Positions 26,564-35,257 of a stretch of DNA of 64,000 nt are shown here, piece after piece. Position 1 is the first letter of the stretch. Each line of letters opens with the position of its first letter. The notes under the pieces are model-generated. The model saw only the letters and a list, made by a program, of their open reading frames with translations, ran no database searches and was not told the origin of the DNA. A program made the translations under genes and the position numbers. This DNA comes from Acidobacteriota bacterium (GTDB taxonomy: Bacteria; Acidobacteriota; Terriglobia; Bryobacterales; Bryobacteraceae), in contig JACQDF010000049.1 of the NCBI GenBank assembly GCA_016201205.1, positions 4,401 through 68,400 on the forward strand. Direction: 5' to 3'.

Positions 26564-29500
26564 TCAAAGGGCGAGGGCAAGCGGGCTGATCCGGGGTCCG
26601 GGCAGCACGATGCCCGATAGATTCAGAGGGTCGGCCGGCGCCACAGGCCGGTCCGGTTCAGACGGAGCGGAACGCCGCACCGCCCGCAGCAGGTCGACCG
26701 CTTCCGGCAGCGCGAAGTGCTCCCCGACCAGCGCCGCGGCAAATCGTCCTCCGCGGATTTCGCCTCGCATCTCCATTCTTCGCAGCACAACCAGCAGATC
26801 GCGCCACGGCGGTGCGAGGACCTCCCGCGCCAGCACATCACGGCACAGCACGCCCCAGCGTCGCAGCAATACTTTGCCAAACCACTCCACGCCAGGTGTG
26901 GCGTTGCGATCCAGGAGCGCCCATCGCCCGGCAGCGTGGCGTGGCCGCGCCAGCCGCCCTCGCCCCTCTCCCCGGCGCCGCTTTTCGTCCACCAGCGCGC
27001 GGAGATTCTCGAAGCCGTCCGCAGTCACCAGCCCGGCTGCGATCAGCTCCCACAGCGCGTCTTCCACTTCACTGGCCAGATGCCCGGACCCGCGTTGCAG
27101 ATCAGCAAAGAAGGATGCTCCGCGGCGTTCGAGCACGGCCTTGACATCACACGCCGCATGCGACAGGAGCGGCTCCGCAATCGGCGCCAGCAGCGCTTCC
27201 GCGTCTTCGCGAGGAAAAATCGCCAGCGGAGTCAGCCGGTTGGGCCGCACACCGGGCCCGGAAGGCGGCGACAGCCGCGCCCACATCACTTCGCCGGAAA
27301 GACAAAGCTGATCGAGCAATTCCGGCGCATAGCCCGCCACCCGCCTCGCCAGCACCTGCGTCTCCCAGGCCGCGGCGGGCGCCTCGTAGCCTTCCAGTTG
27401 CCGGATCACCGCCATCAACCCGTCGGCGCCATGGAGTTGCGTCCCCGGCGCTGCGTGCTGCCAGGCATGCAGAAAACGCACAAACTCGCTGCTCGTGACC
27501 GGCTCGATCTCGCGGCGCAGCTTGCTCATCGTCAGCCGGTGAATGCGCGCCAGCAGGCGTCGGTTGCACCACTCGGCGGCGCCGCTCTGGGTGAACTGGC
27601 CGCGCAGCACTTGCCCGGCGGCCTCAAGACGCGCTAAGCCCGCTTCGACGAGCTTGCCGGGCAACGAGAGTTTTTCCGCCAGTGCGCTGCTGCTCGCCGG
27701 CCCGACGGACTCGAGCCAGCCGCCGATCAGTTGAGCCGCCGCCGCCTCGTCTTCCTTTTCGTAAACAAGCCGCGCCGCGTCCGCCCGCTCCGCCGGGACC
27801 CAAAAGCCGCGATAGACCAGGACACGCCGGTCTCGAGCCAGCGAGTGGAAATGCTCCTGCCATTCGCCGGCCGGCGGCAAAACGACCAGCGTCATCAGCG
27901 CGTCGTGAAGCTCATCGGCATCGCGCACGGCGGGCCAGGCCTCTTCAGCCACTGTGCGGATGGCTTCCGGATCGAGCATGCCGGGCGCGCCGGGCAGCTC
28001 GATGCCCGCGCTGCGGCGCAGTTGCACGGCGCGCGCGCGCCGTTCTTCCAGCGGAGCATCATCGAGAAACGCGAATGGATTCGCATTCACGATTTCGTGC
28101 GAGAACGGCGACGCGGCCGGCGTCTCAATGGCCACCGTGGCGATCGCGCCGCTCTCGATGCCGGCGAGCGCCTCGCCCAGGCCGTCCAGATCCATCGCCT
28201 CATGCAGGCAGTTGGATATCGTCTCGTTCACCAGCGGGTGAACCGGAATGCGGATCTCGCCGCTGAGATTCTCCGCGCAGGCGGCTTGATCCGGAAACAC
28301 GGCCGCAACCAGATCATCCGCTTTCATCCGCTGCAACGGAGCGGGGACTTTCCGGCCGCCGGCAAACCGGGGGATCGCCAGCGCACGCGTTGCGTTCCAG
28401 CGCCAGCGGACGGCGAACATCGGCGACGCCAGCAGAGCCTGTGTCAGCACCGGCTCCACCGTATTGCTCTTGAGAAACTCGAAGACGATCTCCAGGGGAA
28501 ACGAATGCTGCTCGCTGAGGGAGATGATGATGCCGTTGTCGGTCGCCGCCGCCTGCAATTCCACGTTGAACGAGCGGCAGAACCGCTTTCGCAGCGCCAG
28601 TCCCCAGGCGCGGGTGATGCGGGCGCCGAAGGGAGCATGAATCACAAGCTGCATCCCGCCCGATTCGTCAAAGAAGCGCTCGGCGATCACCCGCCGGCGG
28701 GACGGCACGGCGCCCAAAGCCGCGCGGCCCGCCTGCACGTAATCGACAACCTGCCCGGCGCCACGCGCATCGAGGCCGCATTCGCGCATCAGGAACTCCG
28801 CCGCATCGGCGCGTTGGGCGATCTGCTCCCGCAAGCCGGAGACATGCCCGGACAGCTCCGGCGTGCGACTGGGAGCTTCGCCGCGCCAGAATGGAATCGA
28901 CGGCGCCATCCCCTGTGCGTCCTCGACGCGCAGCCGCCCCGGCTCCACTCTCCGCACCCGCCACGAGCTCGCCCCCAGGATGAACACGTCGCCCACCATG
29001 CTCTCCATGGCGAAATCCTCATCCACGGTGCCGACCGTCGAGCCGTCCGGCTCGGCGACGACGTTGTACATCGTCGTGTCCGGGATCGCACCTCCCGAGG
29101 TGATCGCGGCGATGCGCGCCCCCCGGCGAGCGCGCACTTTGCCGTTGATGCGGTCGTGATGCAGGTACGCCGTGCTGCGCCCGCGCGAGGTCGTGATGCC
29201 TTCCGACAGCATCTCGAGCACCGCGTCAAAGGCCGCCCGCTCCAGCGATTCGTACGACCAGGCGGATTTGGCCAGCGCGAACAGGTCCTCTTGCTTCCAT
29301 TCGCCGGTGGCGCAGGCGGCGACAAGCTGCTGAGCCAGGATGTCGAGCGGCGCGCGCGGCTTGAGGAAGCAGTCGAGGTCGCCGCTGCGCATCCCTCGAA
29401 CCAGCGCCGCGCATTCGATCAGCTCGTCGCGCGTGGTGGGGAAGAACCGCCCTTTGGATTTCGCACCCACCCAATGCCCCGAACGGCCGATGCGTTGAAA

Positions 29501-30550
29501 CGCCACCGCCAGCGAGCGGGGCGAGCCGATCTGGCAGACCAGGTCCACCGTGCCGATATCAATGCCCAGTTCGAGCGAAGCGGTGGCGACCACCGCCCGC
29601 AATGCCCCCTTCTTGAGCTTCTCCTCGACCGACAGGCGTGTGCGGCGCGACAGGCTGCCGTGGTGCGGCATCACCAGATCCTCGCCGATGCGCCCGGCAA
29701 GGTGATGCGCCACGCGCTCCGACAGCCGCCGCGTGCTGACGAAGATCAGCGTGGTGCGATTCTCGAGCGCCAGTTCCGCCAGCCGGTCGTAGACTTCGGC
29801 CCACATCTCCGTGCTCGCCACCGGGCCCAGCTCGTCGCGGGGCGCCTCGATGGCGAGTTCCATTTCTCTGCGCTCGCCCGCGCGAACGATGCGCGTGGAT
29901 GGGCCCAGAAAGCGAGCCATCTCCTCGATCGGCTTTACCGTGGCCGACAGCCCGATCCGCTGCGGCCTGGATCCGGTCAGGGCGTCCAGCCGCGCCAGCG
30001 TCAGCGCGAGATGCGAGCCGCGCTTGTCCCCGGCGACAGCGTGAATCTCATCGACGATCACCGTGCTCGCCGTGGCCAGTGTGCGCCGCGACCCTTCCGC
30101 CGTCAGGAGAATGTAGAGCGACTCCGGCGTGGTGACCAGGATGTGCGGAGGCTCGCGCCGCATGCGCGCCCGCTCCCGCTGCTGAGTGTCGCCGGTGCGC
30201 ACCGCGGTGCGAATCTCCTGCAACGGGACTCCTTTTTCGGCGGCCAGCGCTTTGATTTCCGCCAAAGGCGCCTCGAGGTTCCTGTGCACGTCGTTGCTCA
30301 GCGCCTTCAGTGGGGAAACGTAAACGACTTCCGTGCGGTCAGCCAGCATGCTTTGCCGCGCCGCTTTCACCAGAGCGTCCACGCAGATGAGGAATGCCGC
30401 CAGCGTCTTGCCGGAGCCGGTGGGTGCCCAGATGAGCACATCGTGACCTGCTTGTATTTCCGGCCAGCCGAGCGATTGCGGCTCGGTCGGCGCCTTAAAC
30501 TTGCGCTCGAACCACTCACGCACCAATGGATCCAGCTCAGTCAGCGGCAT
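26564..30550 (-). CDS. lhr: Lhr-family large ATP-dependent DEAD/DEAH-box helicase
   Basis: 1328 aa. WAPTGSGKTLAAFL (motif I), VDEIHA (motif II), and a long Lhr-type C-terminal extension. Confidence 0.85.
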   Translation of the reverse strand: MPLTELDPLVREWFERKFKAPTEPQSLGWPEIQAGHDVLIWAPTGSGKTLAAFLICVDALVKAARQSMLADRTEVVYVSPLKALSNDVHRNLEAPLAEIKALAAEKGVPLQEIRTAVRTGDTQQRERARMRREPPHILVTTPESLYILLTAEGSRRTLATASTVIVDEIHAVAGDKRGSHLALTLARLDALTGSRPQRIGLSATVKPIEEMARFLGPSTRIVRAGERREMELAIEAPRDELGPVASTEMWAEVYDRLAELALENRTTLIFVSTRRLSERVAHHLAGRIGEDLVMPHHGSLSRRTRLSVEEKLKKGALRAVVATASLELGIDIGTVDLVCQIGSPRSLAVAFQRIGRSGHWVGAKSKGRFFPTTRDELIECAALVRGMRSGDLDCFLKPRAPLDILAQQLVAACATGEWKQEDLFALAKSAWSYESLERAAFDAVLEMLSEGITTSRGRSTAYLHHDRINGKVRARRGARIAAITSGGAIPDTTMYNVVAEPDGSTVGTVDEDFAMESMVGDVFILGASSWRVRRVEPGRLRVEDAQGMAPSIPFWRGEAPSRTPELSGHVSGLREQIAQRADAAEFLMRECGLDARGAGQVVDYVQAGRAALGAVPSRRRVIAERFFDESGGMQLVIHAPFGARITRAWGLALRKRFCRSFNVELQAAATDNGIIISLSEQHSFPLEIVFEFLKSNTVEPVLTQALLASPMFAVRWRWNATRALAIPRFAGGRKVPAPLQRMKADDLVAAVFPDQAACAENLSGEIRIPVHPLVNETISNCLHEAMDLDGLGEALAGIESGAIATVAIETPAASPFSHEIVNANPFAFLDDAPLEERRARAVQLRRSAGIELPGAPGMLDPEAIRTVAEEAWPAVRDADELHDALMTLVVLPPAGEWQEHFHSLARDRRVLVYRGFWVPAERADAARLVYEKEDEAAAAQLIGGWLESVGPASSSALAEKLSLPGKLVEAGLARLEAAGQVLRGQFTQSGAAEWCNRRLLARIHRLTMSKLRREIEPVTSSEFVRFLHAWQHAAPGTQLHGADGLMAVIRQLEGYEAPAAAWETQVLARRVAGYAPELLDQLCLSGEVMWARLSPPSGPGVRPNRLTPLAIFPREDAEALLAPIAEPLLSHAACDVKAVLERRGASFFADLQRGSGHLASEVEDALWELIAAGLVTADGFENLRALVDEKRRRGEGRGRLARPRHAAGRWALLDRNATPGVEWFGKVLLRRWGVLCRDVLAREVLAPPWRDLLVVLRRMEMRGEIRGGRFAAALVGEHFALPEAVDLLRAVRRSAPSEPDRPVAPADPLNLSGIVLPGPRISPLALAL

Positions 30551-30558
30551 GGGATCAG

Positions 30559-31040
30559 CTACGGCAAGGCAAATGCAATCAATGCGTCCGAATACACATC
30601 ATTGTACTTGTCGCCGCCGCCGGCGGCGACCACGACATATTGCTTGCTGTTCTTGCCGGGAAACATCATCGGCGTGGCGTGCGCGCTTGCCGGCAGCCGG
30701 TACGTCCATATCTGCCTGCCCGTGTCCTTGTCGAACGCCCGCAACCGGCTGTCATCGGTGGCGCCAATGAAGACGAGCCCGCCGGCGGTGACGATCGAGC
30801 CGCCGAGATTCGACGTCCCGGTCGGCGGCACTCCTTTCGCCAGCAAGAGCGTGCGTGTCTGGGGATCGAAGCTCGCCCCGCCCCAGTTGGCGCCTCCGTT
30901 GGTGCCCGGGAACAGCGCTGTGGGCTTCAGCCCCAGAGGCGTGTAGATGGGGCCGAACGCGGCGCCCTCCAGCAGCTTGCCGCAGAACGCGCACGATTCC
31001 GGCGTTAGGCCTGTCATCCGATTCCAGCCGCGTCGATGCC
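30559..31040 (-). pseudogene. C-terminal remnant (~155 aa) of a PQQ-dependent (glucose/sugar) dehydrogenase
   Basis: The lower part of track ORF 30559..31254 reads ..LTPESCAFCGKLLEGAAFGPIYTP...FPGTNGGANWGGASFDP...GGLVFIGATDDSRLRAFDKDTGRQIWTYRLPASAHATPMMF..KQYVVVAAGGG. The first ~80 codons of that ORF are only the antisense of the HEPN gene. Confidence 0.65.
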
Positions 31041-31095
31041 CACAACCGAATATAATTGTGGTTTCCATGCAATTCACAATGAGAGGATTCTGGCC
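31041..31095 (+). promoter_or_regulatory. AT-rich junction with a TATAAT hexamer. Possible promoter of the cassette.
   Basis: TATAAT lies at 31051-31056, and a 6-bp inverted repeat ATTGTG/CACAAT at 31055-31060 / 31075-31080. This is a locally low-GC stretch in a high-GC context. I could not find a convincing -35. Confidence 0.25.
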
Positions 31096-31106
31096 CGCCT
31101 CAAGCC

Positions 31107-31116
31107 GAGGTTCACC
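31107..31116. repeat. Left arm (GAGGTTCACC) of a 10-bp inverted repeat bracketing the three-gene cassette
   Basis: It is the exact reverse complement of 34296-34305. It lies immediately before the stop (31117-31119) that opens the HEPN frame. Confidence 0.4.
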
Positions 31117-31119
31117 TGA

Positions 31120-31527
31120 GGTCCCGATGACTATCCGGGCGCCGCCTCGAAACACGTCCTCGACGGCGAAGCCCTGCTGGCCGCACATCGTTTCGACGGC
31201 GCCGGATATCTGGCCGGCTACGCCGTCGAGTGCACAATCAAGACCGTGGCTCAAGTAGAGGGGAATGTGCTACGCGGCCATGATCTTGGCGGCCTCAGCC
31301 GCAGTGCTTTGGCGTTGGTGGCACTGCCGTCCGGTCGAACGGCTCGTTACCTAACCAATCCTAACCTCACCACCCTGACCTACGGTGATCCGCCGGGATG
31401 GAAGGAAACGATGCGCTATCAGGCAGCAGGATTCGTAAACCAGATTGATGCAGGTACCTGGGTTGCTGAGGCGCGTCGACTCCACGATGAAGTGATAGTC
31501 CAGATGAGGCTGAACGGAGACCTGTGA
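31120..31527 (+). CDS. HEPN-like domain protein; the start codon is unresolved
   Basis: My own translation of the open frame from 31120 reads ..AASKHVLDGEALLAAHRFDGAGYLAGYAVECTIKTVAQVEGNVLRGHDLGGLS...WKETMRYQAAGF... This shows the HEPN-like pattern GYAvEc.iK / .HdL..L / ..RY. The only in-frame ATG/GTG/TTG is GTG 31246 (the 93-aa track ORF). A well-placed GAGG (31118-31121) plus ATG (31127) is one nucleotide out of frame. Confidence 0.55.
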   Translation, partial: GPDDYPGAASKHVLDGEALLAAHRFDGAGYLAGYAVECTIKTVAQVEGNVLRGHDLGGLSRSALALVALPSGRTARYLTNPNLTTLTYGDPPGWKETMRYQAAGFVNQIDAGTWVAEARRLHDEVIVQMRLNGDL

Positions 31528-32822
31528 CGATGCACTTCGGACAAGCACGCCAGGCGGCGGCAACTGTGTTGCAGCAGAATGAGTCGCTCCTCGACCGAGC
31601 AGTTCTGATCGACGATGTCTTCGGCAAGATCCGAGTCGTTGCTTGGTTCACCGCAGATGTTCCGCCGAATGCGGAGAACGGCTTGCGAGGTTCGCTGAAG
31701 GAAGCATCTGGCCCATTCTGGTCGGGCGATCTTTGGGTGGCCAACGGGGCGTCTGCTGCAGATCTCGAGGTCTATGAGACGGCATGGAAGGAGGCCGGCG
31801 AAATCACGCCCAAATTGCGAAGGTCGTCACGTCGGCGGACACGTGGCTTCTGGCTCGAAGCACCGGGCGAACCAGCGTGGCGGCTTCCCGATGACGGCGG
31901 AGCCACGCCGATCGTCGCCTTCTATTCCTTCAAGGGCGGCGTCGGACGCACAACTGCCCTAGCATCATTCGCCGTTCTACGCGCCCGGAAAGGCGAGCGA
32001 GTCGCGGTACTCGACCTTGACTTGGATGCCCCTGGGGTAGGCTTGTTGCTGGATCCGGGCGAGTTCGCCCAACCCTCGGCGTGGGGCGTCGTGGACTATC
32101 TGCTGGAAGCGCCACTGCTTGAACACCTTGATCTTGAGGACTACTACCATGTCTGCGCCCGTGAGGCTCTGACTGGCGCGGGAGAGATCCTGGTCTTCCC
32201 GTCGGGGCGCCTGGAATCCGATTACGTGGCCACCCTCGCACGACTCGACTTGGAGCCTCCACATCCCCGTAAGCAGCATCCCCTTCTGCGGTTATTGGAA
32301 CAAGTTCGGGACGAGTTGCGACCAGAGTGGATATTGCTGGATTGCCGAGCTGGCCTGTCAGAAGCCGCCGGCTTCGCCCTCAGTGGCTTGGCGCATCTTA
32401 CCGTGTTGCTCGGCACGACATCAAATCAGAGTTGGGCGGGCTTGCGTCTTCTCCTCGATCGCCTCGGCGCAGAGCGCGTTCGCAAATCGATATCACAGTC
32501 CGAGTGCTTGATCGTACAGGCGATGGTACCGGATGACCCAACGGTCGGTGGGTTGGCCAGGGAACACTTCGCAGAACGCGCCGCAGAAGAGTTTGAACAG
32601 GCCTATTATGCGGAGAACCCTACAGACCCGGACGAAGACGCCTACTGGTATATGCGCGACATGGATACGGACGACGCACCGCACGTGCCGGTAGTGATCT
32701 CTTACAAGCCTCGGCTGGCGTTTCTGCGGTCGATAGAAGATGCCGTACCCGTCTTCCAAGATTCCGAATACGGCGCCCTGGAGACGCGCATCTCAAGCCG
32801 TTTCGGGAAGGAGGGGGAATGA
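31524..32822 (+). CDS. ParA/MinD-class ATPase with variant Walker A 'KGGVGR', carrying an unassigned ~125-aa N-terminal domain
   Basis: IVAFYSFKGGVGRTTALASFAVL (deviant Walker A with Arg in place of the P-loop Lys), VAVLDLDLDAPGVG (A' box) and EWILLDCRAGLSE (Walker B). The start is GTG 31524 (GTGA overlap with the HEPN stop) or ATG 31530, preceded by GGAGA at 31516-31520. Confidence 0.8.
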   Translation: MTMHFGQARQAAATVLQQNESLLDRAVLIDDVFGKIRVVAWFTADVPPNAENGLRGSLKEASGPFWSGDLWVANGASAADLEVYETAWKEAGEITPKLRRSSRRRTRGFWLEAPGEPAWRLPDDGGATPIVAFYSFKGGVGRTTALASFAVLRARKGERVAVLDLDLDAPGVGLLLDPGEFAQPSAWGVVDYLLEAPLLEHLDLEDYYHVCAREALTGAGEILVFPSGRLESDYVATLARLDLEPPHPRKQHPLLRLLEQVRDELRPEWILLDCRAGLSEAAGFALSGLAHLTVLLGTTSNQSWAGLRLLLDRLGAERVRKSISQSECLIVQAMVPDDPTVGGLAREHFAERAAEEFEQAYYAENPTDPDEDAYWYMRDMDTDDAPHVPVVISYKPRLAFLRSIEDAVPVFQDSEYGALETRISSRFGKEGE

Positions 32823-34300
32823 GCCGCCTTCAACAAGAAGAACGTATTGTGTTGCTGAGTGATCTGGCGAGCATGGGCAGCAGTGGCATCGCCGAGAATG
32901 AAAATGCCGCCACGTTCCGTCAGACCTTCTATCCGGTCGCCGAGCACAGTCGTGCATTTGATCCCGACGTTGCCCTCGTTGTCGGAAGTCGCGGTTCCGG
33001 AAAGAGTGAGCTGTTCCGAGCAGTGGTGCGTGAGAAACTGTTACCTGCAATCGCGCGCGTGAGCGGCGGGCAACTGAGCCGGTTGATGCCGCAGCAAATC
33101 GATTGGGTCGCTGGCCATCCACTCGAGAGGGAGTTCCCGGACATGAGTGGATTACGGCGATACTTCAGCGAGCATCAGTCGGATCCGGATGCGTCCGTTG
33201 ACCTTTGGCGCGCCTATCTTCTTCGGACACTGACAGGACATCTGGACTTGGCCGGTTTCAGAAGCCGGAGCCTTTTTGAATCACAAGGCGCTGACGTCGA
33301 GGCCATAGTGAGGAACTTGGGCGATCTCGGAAATCAGCCGGTGCTCGCGCTTGACCGATTGGACCAGACCTTGGAGGGCAGCCAACGCTGGATCATCGTC
33401 AGCTACGACGAACTCGACGTGATCGGTGGCTACGATTGGCATTCCATGGTCCAGTCTATTCACGGGCTGATCTCATTTTGGGCCAACAACGCCCGGCGCT
33501 GGAAACGTATCCGGCCAAAGATCTTCTTGCGAACGGACCTGTTTCGCCGGCATGCCCAATCGTTCGGCGCCGATCTCATCAAACTGGCCGCCAACCGGGC
33601 CGAGATCACATGGAGCGATCGCAACCTGTACGGCATGCTGGTGAAGCGGCTGGCGAATGCCAGTGAAGACCTGCGCCGCTACTGCGAGGCTGCTCGTGTT
33701 CGGTTTGAACAAGACGTTGATCTCGCGCTGATTCCATTGATAGGAAAATCCCCCGATGCGCGCCCGCTGATTGAGAGGATTGCCGGGCAGTACATGGGTG
33801 CCAACCTCAAAAAGGGTCGTACGTTTGCTTGGTTACTCACTCACATTCGCGACGGGAATGGTCACGCCATGCCGCGCGCCCTCGTCCGGCTGATCGAGAA
33901 GGCTGCGAGCCAGGAACTTGAGCGACCTCTGGCGACTTACAATCGGTTGCTCGACCCCCGCAGTCTCCGCCGCGCGCTGGACGATGTGTCCAAGGAACAC
34001 GTATTGGAGGTGAACACCCACGAGCTGCCCTGGTTGCCTGGTGTCAAGGATCGATTGGAGGGTTCTGGCGTTCCTATGCTGCGCCGAGAAGCCGAGCGAC
34101 TGCTCAGCCGCGGATGGGACGACTCGTGGAATATAACGCAACCCTGCGCGCGCCCGCCAGCGAACGCGGCCACCGAACTGGTTACGCAGTTGACTGAGAT
34201 TGGTGTTTTCCGGGTGCGCCCAGATGGCCGAATCGATGTCCCCGACCTGTTCATGGCGGGCCTCGGGCTCTCACGTAAGGGCGGCGTGCGAAAACGGTGA
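32819..34300 (+). CDS. P-loop NTPase of unassigned family (STAND/Sll1717-like is only my impression)
   Basis: Walker A is DVALVVGSRGSGKSELF and Walker B is RWIIVSYDELD, followed by RPKIFLRTDLF and AEITWSDRNLYGMLVKRL. The C-terminus is basic: ..IGVFRVRPDGRIDVPDLFMAGLGLSRKGGVRKR. GGAGG lies at 32810-32814, and there is an ATGA overlap with the upstream stop. Confidence 0.8.
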   Translation: MSRLQQEERIVLLSDLASMGSSGIAENENAATFRQTFYPVAEHSRAFDPDVALVVGSRGSGKSELFRAVVREKLLPAIARVSGGQLSRLMPQQIDWVAGHPLEREFPDMSGLRRYFSEHQSDPDASVDLWRAYLLRTLTGHLDLAGFRSRSLFESQGADVEAIVRNLGDLGNQPVLALDRLDQTLEGSQRWIIVSYDELDVIGGYDWHSMVQSIHGLISFWANNARRWKRIRPKIFLRTDLFRRHAQSFGADLIKLAANRAEITWSDRNLYGMLVKRLANASEDLRRYCEAARVRFEQDVDLALIPLIGKSPDARPLIERIAGQYMGANLKKGRTFAWLLTHIRDGNGHAMPRALVRLIEKAASQELERPLATYNRLLDPRSLRRALDDVSKEHVLEVNTHELPWLPGVKDRLEGSGVPMLRREAERLLSRGWDDSWNITQPCARPPANAATELVTQLTEIGVFRVRPDGRIDVPDLFMAGLGLSRKGGVRKR

Positions 34301-34305
34301 ACCTC
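34296..34305. repeat. Right arm (GGTGAACCTC) of the 10-bp inverted repeat bracketing the cassette
   Basis: Exact reverse complement of 31107-31116. It contains the stop codon (34298-34300) of the last cassette gene. Confidence 0.4.
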
Positions 34306-34332
34306 AACAGGAGTCTTGCTACGCGAGCCACG

Positions 34333-34353
34333 CACCTGCCTTTTGGGCAGGTG
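34333..34353 (+). terminator. Hairpin CACCTGCC-TTTTG-GGCAGGTG downstream of the cassette
   Basis: 8-bp perfect stem read from the sequence, 33 nt after the stop of the P-loop NTPase gene. There is no downstream T-tract, so function as an intrinsic terminator is uncertain. Confidence 0.3.
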
Positions 34354-34384
34354 AGCTGCCAATTGACCCACTGAAAACACTCGC

Positions 34385-34655
34385 TAGGACGTCGGCGCGA
34401 TCCGCCGACCAGCACTTTTGACGGAAAGCACCGGCCGCCCTGCCGAAGCTGTCCGCGGGCTTGCCGGTGGCTGCATCAATCGCCCAAAGCTGCCCGTCGA
34501 GCGTGCCGTAGAACAGGCGCCGCAGCTTGCCGCCGGCCCAAGCGGTAGATCTGATCGAGCCGGGAATAACGCGTGCCGCCCGCGTCGCCGCCGTAGACAG
34601 GCCATTGCTGCGCGCCGGCGTGGATCGGCAGAAAAAGAGCAGCCACCAGAAGCAT
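34385..34655 (-). pseudogene. N-terminal remnant of the PQQ-dependent dehydrogenase, internally disrupted
   Basis: My own translation gives MLLVAALFLPIHAGAQQWPVYGGDAGGTRYSRLDQI (signal peptide plus the typical PQQ-dehydrogenase start). After a frame change it reads KLRRLFYGTLDGQLWAIDAATGKPADSFG (a propeller-blade motif). The frames are broken and about 70 aa are missing between the two pieces. Confidence 0.6.
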
Positions 34656-34720
34656 GTACCATACCCTTATCCCAGTTGGAGGATCGCGGAGGCGCCATCT
34701 GGCACAATGAGTAGTGGACC

Positions 34721-35257
34721 ATGACATTTCACCCTCATGCCTACGGGCCGGCCATCGCGAACATCCTCGCTCTGGATGGCAACGGCGCGCGGCTGATGCC
34801 GCTGGCCGGTGGCACGTGCTCTTCCCCGCAAGCCCGGGCCCGTCTCGGCAAGCTTCGCCCGGAAGATCTGTTCCCCGGCAGCCGCGCTCCGGAAGCCGCC
34901 TTCAGCGGTCTCTGGCTCTATTTTTCCTGTCTCGACGAGTCGCACCGGCTTTCGCAAGACATCGCGACCCCGGAGGGCAGTTTCTGGCACGGCATTATGC
35001 ACCGCCAGGAGCCTGATCCAGACAATTCTTCGTATTGGTTTCGCCGCACCAGCTCGCATCCGGTGTTTCCGGAATTGGCCGAGGACGCCGCCGCGCTCGG
35101 ATACGGCGCCGGCCCGCGCTGGGATCCGTTCGCCTTCATCGACTTCGTCGAGCAGGCGCGCCGCAGACCGGGTTCCGATGAGGAACATCTGGCGCTCGTG
35201 GTGCAGTGCGCCGAATGGCAGCTTCTGTTCGATTACTGCGCGAGCCCTGCCGGATGA
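34721..35257 (+). CDS. Hypothetical protein
   Basis: 178-aa ORF with non-shadow composition (…SFWHGIMHRQEPDPDNSSYWF…). There is an ATGA overlap with the downstream adaptor gene. I recognise no family. Confidence 0.5.
   Translation: MTFHPHAYGPAIANILALDGNGARLMPLAGGTCSSPQARARLGKLRPEDLFPGSRAPEAAFSGLWLYFSCLDESHRLSQDIATPEGSFWHGIMHRQEPDPDNSSYWFRRTSSHPVFPELAEDAAALGYGAGPRWDPFAFIDFVEQARRRPGSDEEHLALVVQCAEWQLLFDYCASPAG

Follow-up and report, generated by a model that had tools for sequence, protein, structure and literature searches.

Locus layout

The window, by which we mean the whole stretch of 64,000 nucleotides analysed here from an Acidobacteriota bacterium (contig JACQDF010000049.1), carries between positions 31120 and 34300 three consecutive frames on the + strand, encoding a small HEPN-like protein (gene A), a ParA-like ATPase with a KGGVGR motif (ATPase B) and a P-loop ATPase of the Sll1717 family (ATPase C). 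An earlier note on this DNA, made from the letters alone, had read the three as a candidate undescribed conflict system; the packed three-gene layout, the overlaps at the junctions, the motifs it quoted and the hairpin at the 3' end were all found in place. The HEPN-like frame ends at TGA 31525-31527, which is overlapped by GTG 31524, an alternative start of ATPase B, whose ATG 31530 has GGAGA upstream; the stop of ATPase B (TGA 32820-32822) overlaps ATG 32819 of the 493-aa ATPase C. The genes for ATPases B and C can be taken as real because each has at least ~970 homologues at E ≤ 1e-5. The block and its immediate borders contain the following features.

30559..31017, - strand: C-terminal fragment of a PQQ-dependent (alcohol/glucose-type) dehydrogenase (phmmer against PDB; gene call with Pfam PQQ in L001)
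31018..31119, + strand: conserved leader 5' of the genes, TATAAT box at 31051-31056 (aligns with L002 and L085)
31120..31527, + strand: HEPN-like gene of the PDC-M28A family, 5' end damaged (PADLOC-DB model; comparison with relatives)
31530..32822, + strand: KGGVGR-motif ParA/MinD-class ATPase, PDC-M28B (NCBIfam NF047398, PADLOC-DB, AlphaFold2, Foldseek)
32819..34300, + strand: Sll1717-family P-loop ATPase, PDC-M28C (NCBIfam NF047389, PADLOC-DB, AlphaFold2, Foldseek)
34333..34353, + strand: hairpin with a perfect 8-bp stem and a 5-nt loop (direct reading of the sequence; kept in L002 and L085)
34354..34435, + strand: conserved non-coding stretch at the 3' end of the cassette (three-way alignment with L002 and L085)
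34440..34727, - strand: N-terminal remains of the PQQ-dehydrogenase (translation and residue mapping of the C-terminal fragment)

Scans for sigma-70 consensus promoters and intrinsic terminators called none at the cassette ends. The promoter scan missed the TATAAT of the leader because its -35 element is poor; the sequence ATATAAT is invariant across the window and the relatives L002, L003 and L004, and the box at 31051-31056 is probably the cassette's own promoter. The hairpin at 34333-34353 (CACCTGCC-TTTTG-GGCAGGTG) was not called by the scan for intrinsic terminators because no T-run follows it.

The triad is catalogued as PDC-M28

Judged by its protein sequences, the triad is already catalogued: it is PDC-M28, a "phage defence candidate" of PADLOC-DB v2 whose standing is computational only. 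The assignment was made with the PADLOC-DB protein models, all three of which were hit. Gene A matched PDC-M28A (PDLC04558) at E = 2.2e-10 over residues 3-123 (profile positions 3-127 of 138), ATPase B matched PDC-M28B (PDLC04559) at E = 6.8e-58 over residues 2-408 (positions 4-411 of 438), and ATPase C matched PDC-M28C (PDLC04561) at E = 4e-71 over residues 26-492 (positions 23-478 of 480). PDC-M28 was defined through guilt-by-embedding (Payne et al., 2024; bioRxiv 10.1101/2024.01.29.577857) and belongs to a set of 145 candidates, all of them untested, that were met with inside BREX, DISARM or type I restriction-modification (RM) systems; it is listed there as cassette CAS_00115, FAM_01482>>FAM_02546>>FAM_01036, with a count of 121 and the remark "Assign as candidate PDC-M28" (Payne et al., 2024). 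Phage defence candidates are described as untested in DefensePredictor too, where they were excluded as unvalidated. The word "undescribed" in the earlier note therefore has to be given up, since all three proteins match the models of Payne et al. (2024); the match to a named system, which the note itself had offered as grounds for abandoning its claim, is at the level of a named but untested candidate.

The three genes of the window are adjacent and on one strand, in the order A>>B>>C of CAS_00115, and share with PDC-M28 its three families. The defining examples of PDC-M28 are, like the relatives of the window copy, embedded in BREX, RM-like or Hma loci, whereas the window copy itself lies outside any defence system, has an A gene without a start codon, and belongs to a divergent and mostly uncultured Acidobacteria branch, with scores far below those of the Burkholderia glumae copy (1e-131, 3e-166). 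Among the other named systems, the PtuA models of Septu matched only the P-loop region (E 0.01-0.06), with no PtuB, and the PADLOC-DB models of MADS and some others gave marginal P-loop matches only. Nothing relevant on HEPN and ParA-like proteins in anti-phage defence was found in the literature searched.

Conservation and distribution of the triad

With an alignment of ATPase C as query, a scan that took a single genome for each species yielded 186 relatives; 80 loci were fetched, and 76 of these had enough upstream sequence to be informative. In 70 of the 76, tblastn found the HEPN protein, the KGGVGR ATPase and the Sll1717-type ATPase in order and on the same strand. The loci fetched span more than 20 phyla (among them Acidobacteriota, Verrucomicrobiota, Planctomycetota, Chloroflexota, Myxococcota, Desulfobacterota, Spirochaetota, Nitrospirota, Pseudomonadota, Gemmatimonadota and several candidate phyla) and include Methanothrix archaea. 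Stop and start codons overlap at 58 of 65 A-B junctions and 58 of 71 B-C junctions; in bacteria and archaea alike, the genes pass on as one translationally coupled unit. Such a distribution, with the same families in the same order amid unrelated flanks, bears out the earlier note in its reading of the triad as self-contained and horizontally acquired. It also shows the triad to be far wider than its RefSeq-based definition suggests, reaching more than 20 phyla as well as Methanothrix and being abundant in the Acidobacteria of soil and groundwater.

At 25-30% identity the triad is retained on plasmids of the cultured Calothrix PCC 7716 and B. glumae, where the three PADLOC models match strongly; the plasmids that carry it include one conjugative plasmid. 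On the Calothrix sp. PCC 7716 plasmid p2 (L082, 6543-8294) the triad is followed by two more genes on the same strand, of 297 and 281 aa, which have no PADLOC match and may be lineage-specific additions to the operon. A phage origin was considered and set aside, no homologue being present among 50,697 phage records.

A HEPN-like protein with a lost start

The product of gene A is a small HEPN-T-like protein. In 37 of 40 family members from related loci it matches the Pfam HEPN family PF05168 at E ≤ 0.1 (best 4e-9), and the best match of the window's protein among PDB sequences is the HEPN protein 1wol (E = 0.69). Invariant across the 40 sequences of the family are H17, D20, D31, G32, Y35, G38, Y39, E42, K46, H59, L64, W99, R104 and Y105. 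E42-x3-K46 (VECxxK) is the Ex3[KR] motif, which, in helix 2, was described together with an "alternative H" for HEPN-T and AbiV (Anantharaman et al., 2013; PMC3710099). R104 stands where the Rx4-6H motif has its Arg, and the invariant H59 (HDL) lies earlier in the protein, at the "alternative" His site of HEPN-T and AbiV.

The earlier note had placed the HEPN-like gene at 31120-31527. The frame is indeed open to its stop; it is not an intact gene. Upstream of GTG 31246 the frame has no ATG, GTG or TTG. In the closest relatives (L002, L003, L004 and L085) the gene starts with ATGCCGCC(C/T)GATGAC, giving MPPDDYP, and comparison with these four shows that 11 nt, GTGTGATGCCG, are missing from the window between 31122 and 31123, the ATG among them. 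A product begun at GTG 31246 would be without half of the family's invariant residues, missing D20, D31, G32, Y35, G38, Y39, E42 and K46. The same sequence is present in L001, an independent Logan assembly that may nevertheless stem from the same reads as the window, and there the gene caller gives just 86 aa. The HEPN start codon has thus been lost to an 11-bp deletion, which probably left the presumed effector dead in this copy; what remains is probably a cassette without a working effector, in which the two ATPase genes are intact. As a member of the family the window copy is ordinary: decayed, with no HEPN start codon, and lodged within a dead host gene. After the deletion the old Shine-Dalgarno sequence (GAGG) precedes an out-of-frame ATG at 31127, which opens a nonsense ORF of 43 codons ending at TAG 31256-58 (window 31127-31258, + strand); its translation could affect coupling to the downstream ATPase gene.

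Two other loci depart from the usual gene A. At L036:6649-7989 the HEPN gene is deleted in frame, so that its first ~12 residues (NGDDYPEAALK) are joined to the N-terminal domain of ATPase B; this is a second, independent HEPN loss. At L073:6397-8004 the PDC-M28A gene is replaced by a Swt1-type HEPN domain (Pfam E = 4e-36, with a canonical RNSWAH) that continues in frame into the KGGVGR ATPase. The first 26 residues of this fusion and its FSGDDAYRALDSAGRLLTA segment recur without change at the N-terminus of the HmaC encoded downstream (L073:10591-13935), and the locus represents a scar of recombination or else a natural fusion of HEPN and ATPase. The loss or swap of the effector in the window, L036 and L073 points to a functional link between HEPN and ATPase and to a cost of carrying the HEPN protein.

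Specific loss of, or damage to, the HEPN gene in some copies is what would be expected of a toxin, and the cassette might accordingly be a toxin-antitoxin (TA), or addiction, module, in which the ParA-like ATPase would be the antitoxin to the HEPN protein, the AAA+ protein would serve as regulator or chaperone, and the carrier mobile DNA would be stabilised. HEPN and ParA/Soj dyads with the ATPase as antitoxin have been predicted to be TA systems (Anantharaman et al., 2013; PMC3710099), and the presence of the cassette on plasmids, one of them conjugative, fits as well. The order of the genes, with the toxin first, is nevertheless the reverse of that in the described MNT-HEPN and ParA-HEPN dyads, and repeated embedding in BREX and Hma loci is the signature by which defence genes are found. 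We hold a TA module to be unlikely, while giving it some weight; TA and abortive-infection roles are not mutually exclusive.

A ParA-like ATPase with an arginine P-loop

ATPase B (430 or 432 aa, depending on the start) has the motifs FKGGVGRTT, LDLDLDAPG and ILLDCRAG and an Arg-rich linker, KLRRSSRRRTRG. It is divided as follows.

31530-31841, + strand: N-terminal domain, aa 1-104, specific to the family
aa ~101-126, + strand: Arg-rich disordered linker
aa 126-430, + strand: ATPase core
31929-31955, + strand: P-loop FKGGVGRTT

The protein exceeds the cut-off of NCBIfam NF047398 (KGGVGR-motif variant AAA ATPase) with 161.7 bits against 90, over residues 126-312. Its AlphaFold2 model has a predicted local distance difference test score (pLDDT) of 83.6, and Foldseek searches with the model returned Soj, ParA, MinD and BcsQ at E 2e-8 to 1e-6 and template modelling (TM) scores, normalised to the target, of ~0.7. 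The signature Lys K135, the Walker A' residues D162 and D164 and the Walker B residue D271 are invariant. In all 32 aligned homologues the P-loop Lys is an Arg (R140, in SFKGGVGRTT); with respect to the deviant Walker A motif KGGxGK[ST], the family has kept the signature Lys and lacks the P-loop Lys. ATPase B is an ATPase of the ParA/Soj fold whose P-loop Lys is invariably Arg.

For the N-terminal domain, which the earlier note was unable to place, 20 members gave no match in Pfam, a search of PDB sequences found no relative, and an exhaustive search of 1.84 billion representatives saw the domain (aa 1-104) only at the N-terminus of the ATPase B family. In the AlphaFold2 model its topology is alpha-beta-beta-alpha-beta-alpha-beta-beta, and its invariant residues are H2, D29, F31, R35, W39, W64 and W86.

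The fold of ATPase B (ParA/Soj/MinD), taken together with the ORC/Cdc6-like character of ATPase C, could point to a housekeeping or partition-like role, in which DNA or a protein complex would be positioned or segregated in the manner of ParA, unrelated to conflict; both classes of protein act on chromosomes or replicons. Such a role is very improbable in our estimation, given that no ParB, MinE or centromere partner is encoded in the cassette or among its conserved neighbours, that the cassette is patchily distributed and has plainly spread horizontally, amid unrelated flanks, that linkage to the HEPN gene is strict, and that the cassette is found inserted into host genes, which it destroys, and embedded in defence systems.

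An ORC/Cdc6-like ATPase

ATPase C (493 aa) has a Walker A motif GSRGSGKS, a Walker B motif IIVSYDELD and a basic C-terminal tail. It scored 95.6 bits against NCBIfam NF047389 (P-loop ATPase, Sll1717 family; cut-off 75), the best stretch covering just residues 158-470; PDB sequences gave P-loop matches only. With the AlphaFold2 model (pLDDT 87.3, pTM 0.87), Foldseek found 1w5t, 1fnn and 2qen at E 2e-5 to 8e-5, with TM scores of only 0.3-0.5, and the BrxC structures 9zll and 9zdx at E ~5e-3; the closest structures are archaeal ORC2/Cdc6, PAB2304 and the ATPase part of BrxC (its N-terminal region). On the strength of the model, ATPase C is placed among ORC/Cdc6-like AAA+ ATPases with a helical, putatively winged-helix-like region at the C-terminus, the winged helix being read from the span of the alignment.

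Walker A (G56-S63) and Walker B (D197-E198) are invariant in this family, and a basic block, RRWxRIRxKIFLRTD, and the C-terminal tail GLGLxRKGGVR are invariant or nearly so. The tail (34243-34297) echoes the KGGVGR P-loop of ATPase B (31929-31955), and may be an activating peptide of the ParB/MinE kind, or a coincidence.

Embedding in defence loci

The flanks of the triad are nearly all unrelated, the largest cluster among 616 flanking ORFs occurring in 8 loci. Defence genes recur among them: the triad has PglX, BrxC and PglZ directly beside it in 8 loci and HmaB and HmaC in 5, a total of 13, and the 139 immediate neighbours include 11 PglX, 4 HmaB and 3 HEC-01A. The position of the cassette differs from locus to locus; it lies in the gap between brxC and pglX (L013), after pglX (L067, L081), between pglX halves (L024, L026, L066), or in the gap between hmaB and hmaC, which suggests several independent insertions into BREX and Hma loci. 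The repeated embedding supports a role in conflict or defence.

In the split loci, which are of the Desulfobacteraceae BREX type (L024:4189-12196, and also L026 and L066), the cassette sits between ORFs that match positions 65-457 and 621-832 of the 1174-position PglX profile. Every junction overlaps or abuts, and PglX is made as two polypeptides because the cassette was inserted between its consecutive parts. In L031 the Sll1717-type ATPase alone lies between PglX halves.

So close an association raises the question of whether the triad serves BREX or Hma (DUF499) systems as an accessory, or "backup effector", and works only together with them. The 13 loci in which it lies within or next to BREX or Hma genes, often with overlapping junctions, would suit this, as would the standalone HEPN modules that act as auxiliary effectors in BREX and BR loci (PMC12839542) and the structural resemblance of ATPase C to the ATPase domain of BrxC. 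No BREX or Hma genes were present, however, in the flanks read of the window, L002, L085, B. glumae and most other loci, and the cassette has a conserved promoter-like leader of its own; we regard dependence on BREX or Hma as quite unlikely.

Proposed function

We consider it rather probable that the interval ~31018-34435 is a mobile, horizontally acquired three-gene operon of the PDC-M28 family in an Acidobacteria metagenome-assembled genome, an abortive-infection or toxin-type module whose effector is probably dead here. For the module in general, an abortive-infection or toxin-type defence system is the most likely function. In such a system the ORC-like ATPase C, with its C-terminal winged-helix-like region, would sense invading nucleic acid; the ParA-like ATPase B would act as an ATP-dependent dimerisation switch, or as a scaffold, that holds or releases the HEPN protein, a role modelled on that proposed for the MNT or ParA/Soj "antitoxin" of other HEPN dyads; and the HEPN protein would be the toxic effector, either cleaving RNA through an alternative His/Arg/Glu site or binding it. 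The changes that hit the effector in the window, L036 and L073 lend this reading some indirect support.

Several observations weigh against this reading. The roles given to ATPases B and C are inferred purely by analogy. The window's HEPN-like protein reached only 15.4 bits against PF05168, below the cut-off of 22, and in the 40 sequences of its family no His or Asp stands 4-6 residues beyond the invariant R104, leaving the family with no Rx4-6H; on these residues RNase activity is plausible without being assured. The Lys-to-Arg change of KGGVGR may mean that ATPase B binds ATP without hydrolysing it, or binds another ligand. About 63 of the 76 loci are not beside a recognised defence system, as counted in a crude survey of neighbours. 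PDC-M28 is not among the eight candidates assayed in PMC12881386, and no mention of PDC-M28, or of KGGVGR or Sll1717 in this sense, was found in the literature searched. The conflict role that the earlier note had proposed is thus supported by comparative genomics, through the embedding in BREX and Hma loci, while its further step to a HEPN RNase effector is the weaker part, there being no Rx4-6H.

A more specific form of the abortive-infection reading would be a two-ATPase relay of a kind unseen in any characterised defence system. ATPase C would sense foreign DNA; its invariant, basic GLGLxRKGGVR tail would then act in trans on ATPase B, as peptides of ParB and MinE act on ParA and MinD; and the KGGVGR dimerisation switch would, through the N-terminal domain of ATPase B, free the HEPN protein (itself without Rx4-6H) and bring about cell arrest. 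We offer this chain of events as a speculation with little chance of being right in full. Should the triad be validated, a defence system would have been built from a ParA-like switch with a Lys-to-Arg change, an ORC-like ATPase and a HEPN protein of non-canonical type, a combination that is mechanistically unexplored.

Comparison with related systems

One parallel is the dyad of a MAE_18760-family HEPN protein with a ParA/Soj ATPase, predicted to be a TA system in which the ATPase is the antitoxin (Anantharaman et al., 2013; PMC3710099). There, too, a small HEPN protein is coupled to an ATPase of the SIMIBI ParA/Soj type that is proposed as its regulator. The HEPN protein of that dyad keeps Rx4-6H, and its ATPase occupies the 5' position, likened to that of MNT (the minimal nucleotidyltransferase) in MNT-HEPN dyads; in the triad, by contrast, the HEPN protein is PF05168-like without Rx4-6H, its gene leads the operon, and the set invariably has a third member, an ORC-like ATPase. 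The HEPN-MNT (type VII) TA systems likewise have a small protein of the PF05168/HEPN-T kind (putatively four-helix in the triad), a tight operon and a partner that uses nucleotides, but the partners here are two ATPases rather than a minimal nucleotidyltransferase, and none of the three proteins matched nucleotidyltransferase families, NTP_transf_2 included, in Pfam or NCBIfam.

With BrxC and DUF499 (HmaC), ATPases of the STAND/ORC-Cdc6 type, ATPase C shares an ORC/Cdc6-like AAA+ architecture, and some HmaC proteins have a HEPN domain fused to the ATPase. ATPase C is nevertheless much shorter, at 493 aa against ~1100-1200 aa, and had no match to the BrxC and HmaC sequence models of PADLOC-DB; unlike BREX and Hma systems, the cassette contains no methyltransferase or PglZ partner.

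Insertion site and mobility

The cassette, a block of ~3.4 kb, replaces ~1 kb of a PQQ-dehydrogenase gene. On its left, 30559-31017 (- strand) aligns to residues ~380-540 of quinoprotein dehydrogenases of 565-600 aa (phmmer against PDB); on its right, 34440-34727 (- strand) encodes a signal peptide with WPVYGGDAGGTRYS, the first ~45 residues and then a frameshifted piece of PQQ repeat. The host gene is a multiply damaged pseudogene, in which ~335 codons are gone and an extra frameshift separates the RYSRLDQI segment from the FYGTLDGQLWAIDAATGKP repeat.

L002 and L085 begin to resemble the window at CCGATTCCAG (31018); the last ~30 nt before this position may already belong to the cassette. The right boundary is at ~34435. 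Only ~31018-34435 is common to the window, L002 and L085, the three copies lying in three unrelated contexts; L002 is 84% identical in nucleotides, and the KGGVGR ATPase of L085 87% identical in protein. The shared block holds, besides the genes, the leader of ~100 nt and a 3' tail of ~135 nt with the hairpin. GC content is 58-62% within the block and 65-70% in the flanks. A shared block in unrelated contexts, the drop in GC and the broken host gene together argue for mobility, and the earlier note's case for horizontal acquisition, built on lower GC and a destroyed host gene, holds up, with PQQ-dehydrogenase fragments on both sides. The triad appears to move as a discrete block of ~3.4 kb with its own promoter, its genes coupled nearly everywhere.

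Two further kinds of element were looked for and rejected. Mobility of the transposon or integron type finds no support in the sequence, with no terminal inverted repeats or target-site duplications, no nearby tRNA and no integrase or transposase in the flanks; nor did an RNA component, such as an antitoxin sRNA or a riboswitch, emerge from 30800-34700, where Rfam gave no match at E ≤ 1.

The neighbours of the window copy are housekeeping genes (Lhr helicase, HlyD/MacB efflux, glycosyltransferases), and the copy lies outside a defence island. Beside the right-hand remnant of the host gene is an ORF of 178 aa (34721-35257, + strand) that belongs to no Pfam family and whose start overlaps the PQQ N-terminus on the opposite strand. 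Adjoining the broken PQQ gene upstream, 26564-30550 (- strand) encodes a 1328-aa Lhr-type helicase with DEAD, Helicase_C, DEAD_assoc and Lhr winged-helix domains, which probably serves housekeeping DNA repair and stands outside the cassette.

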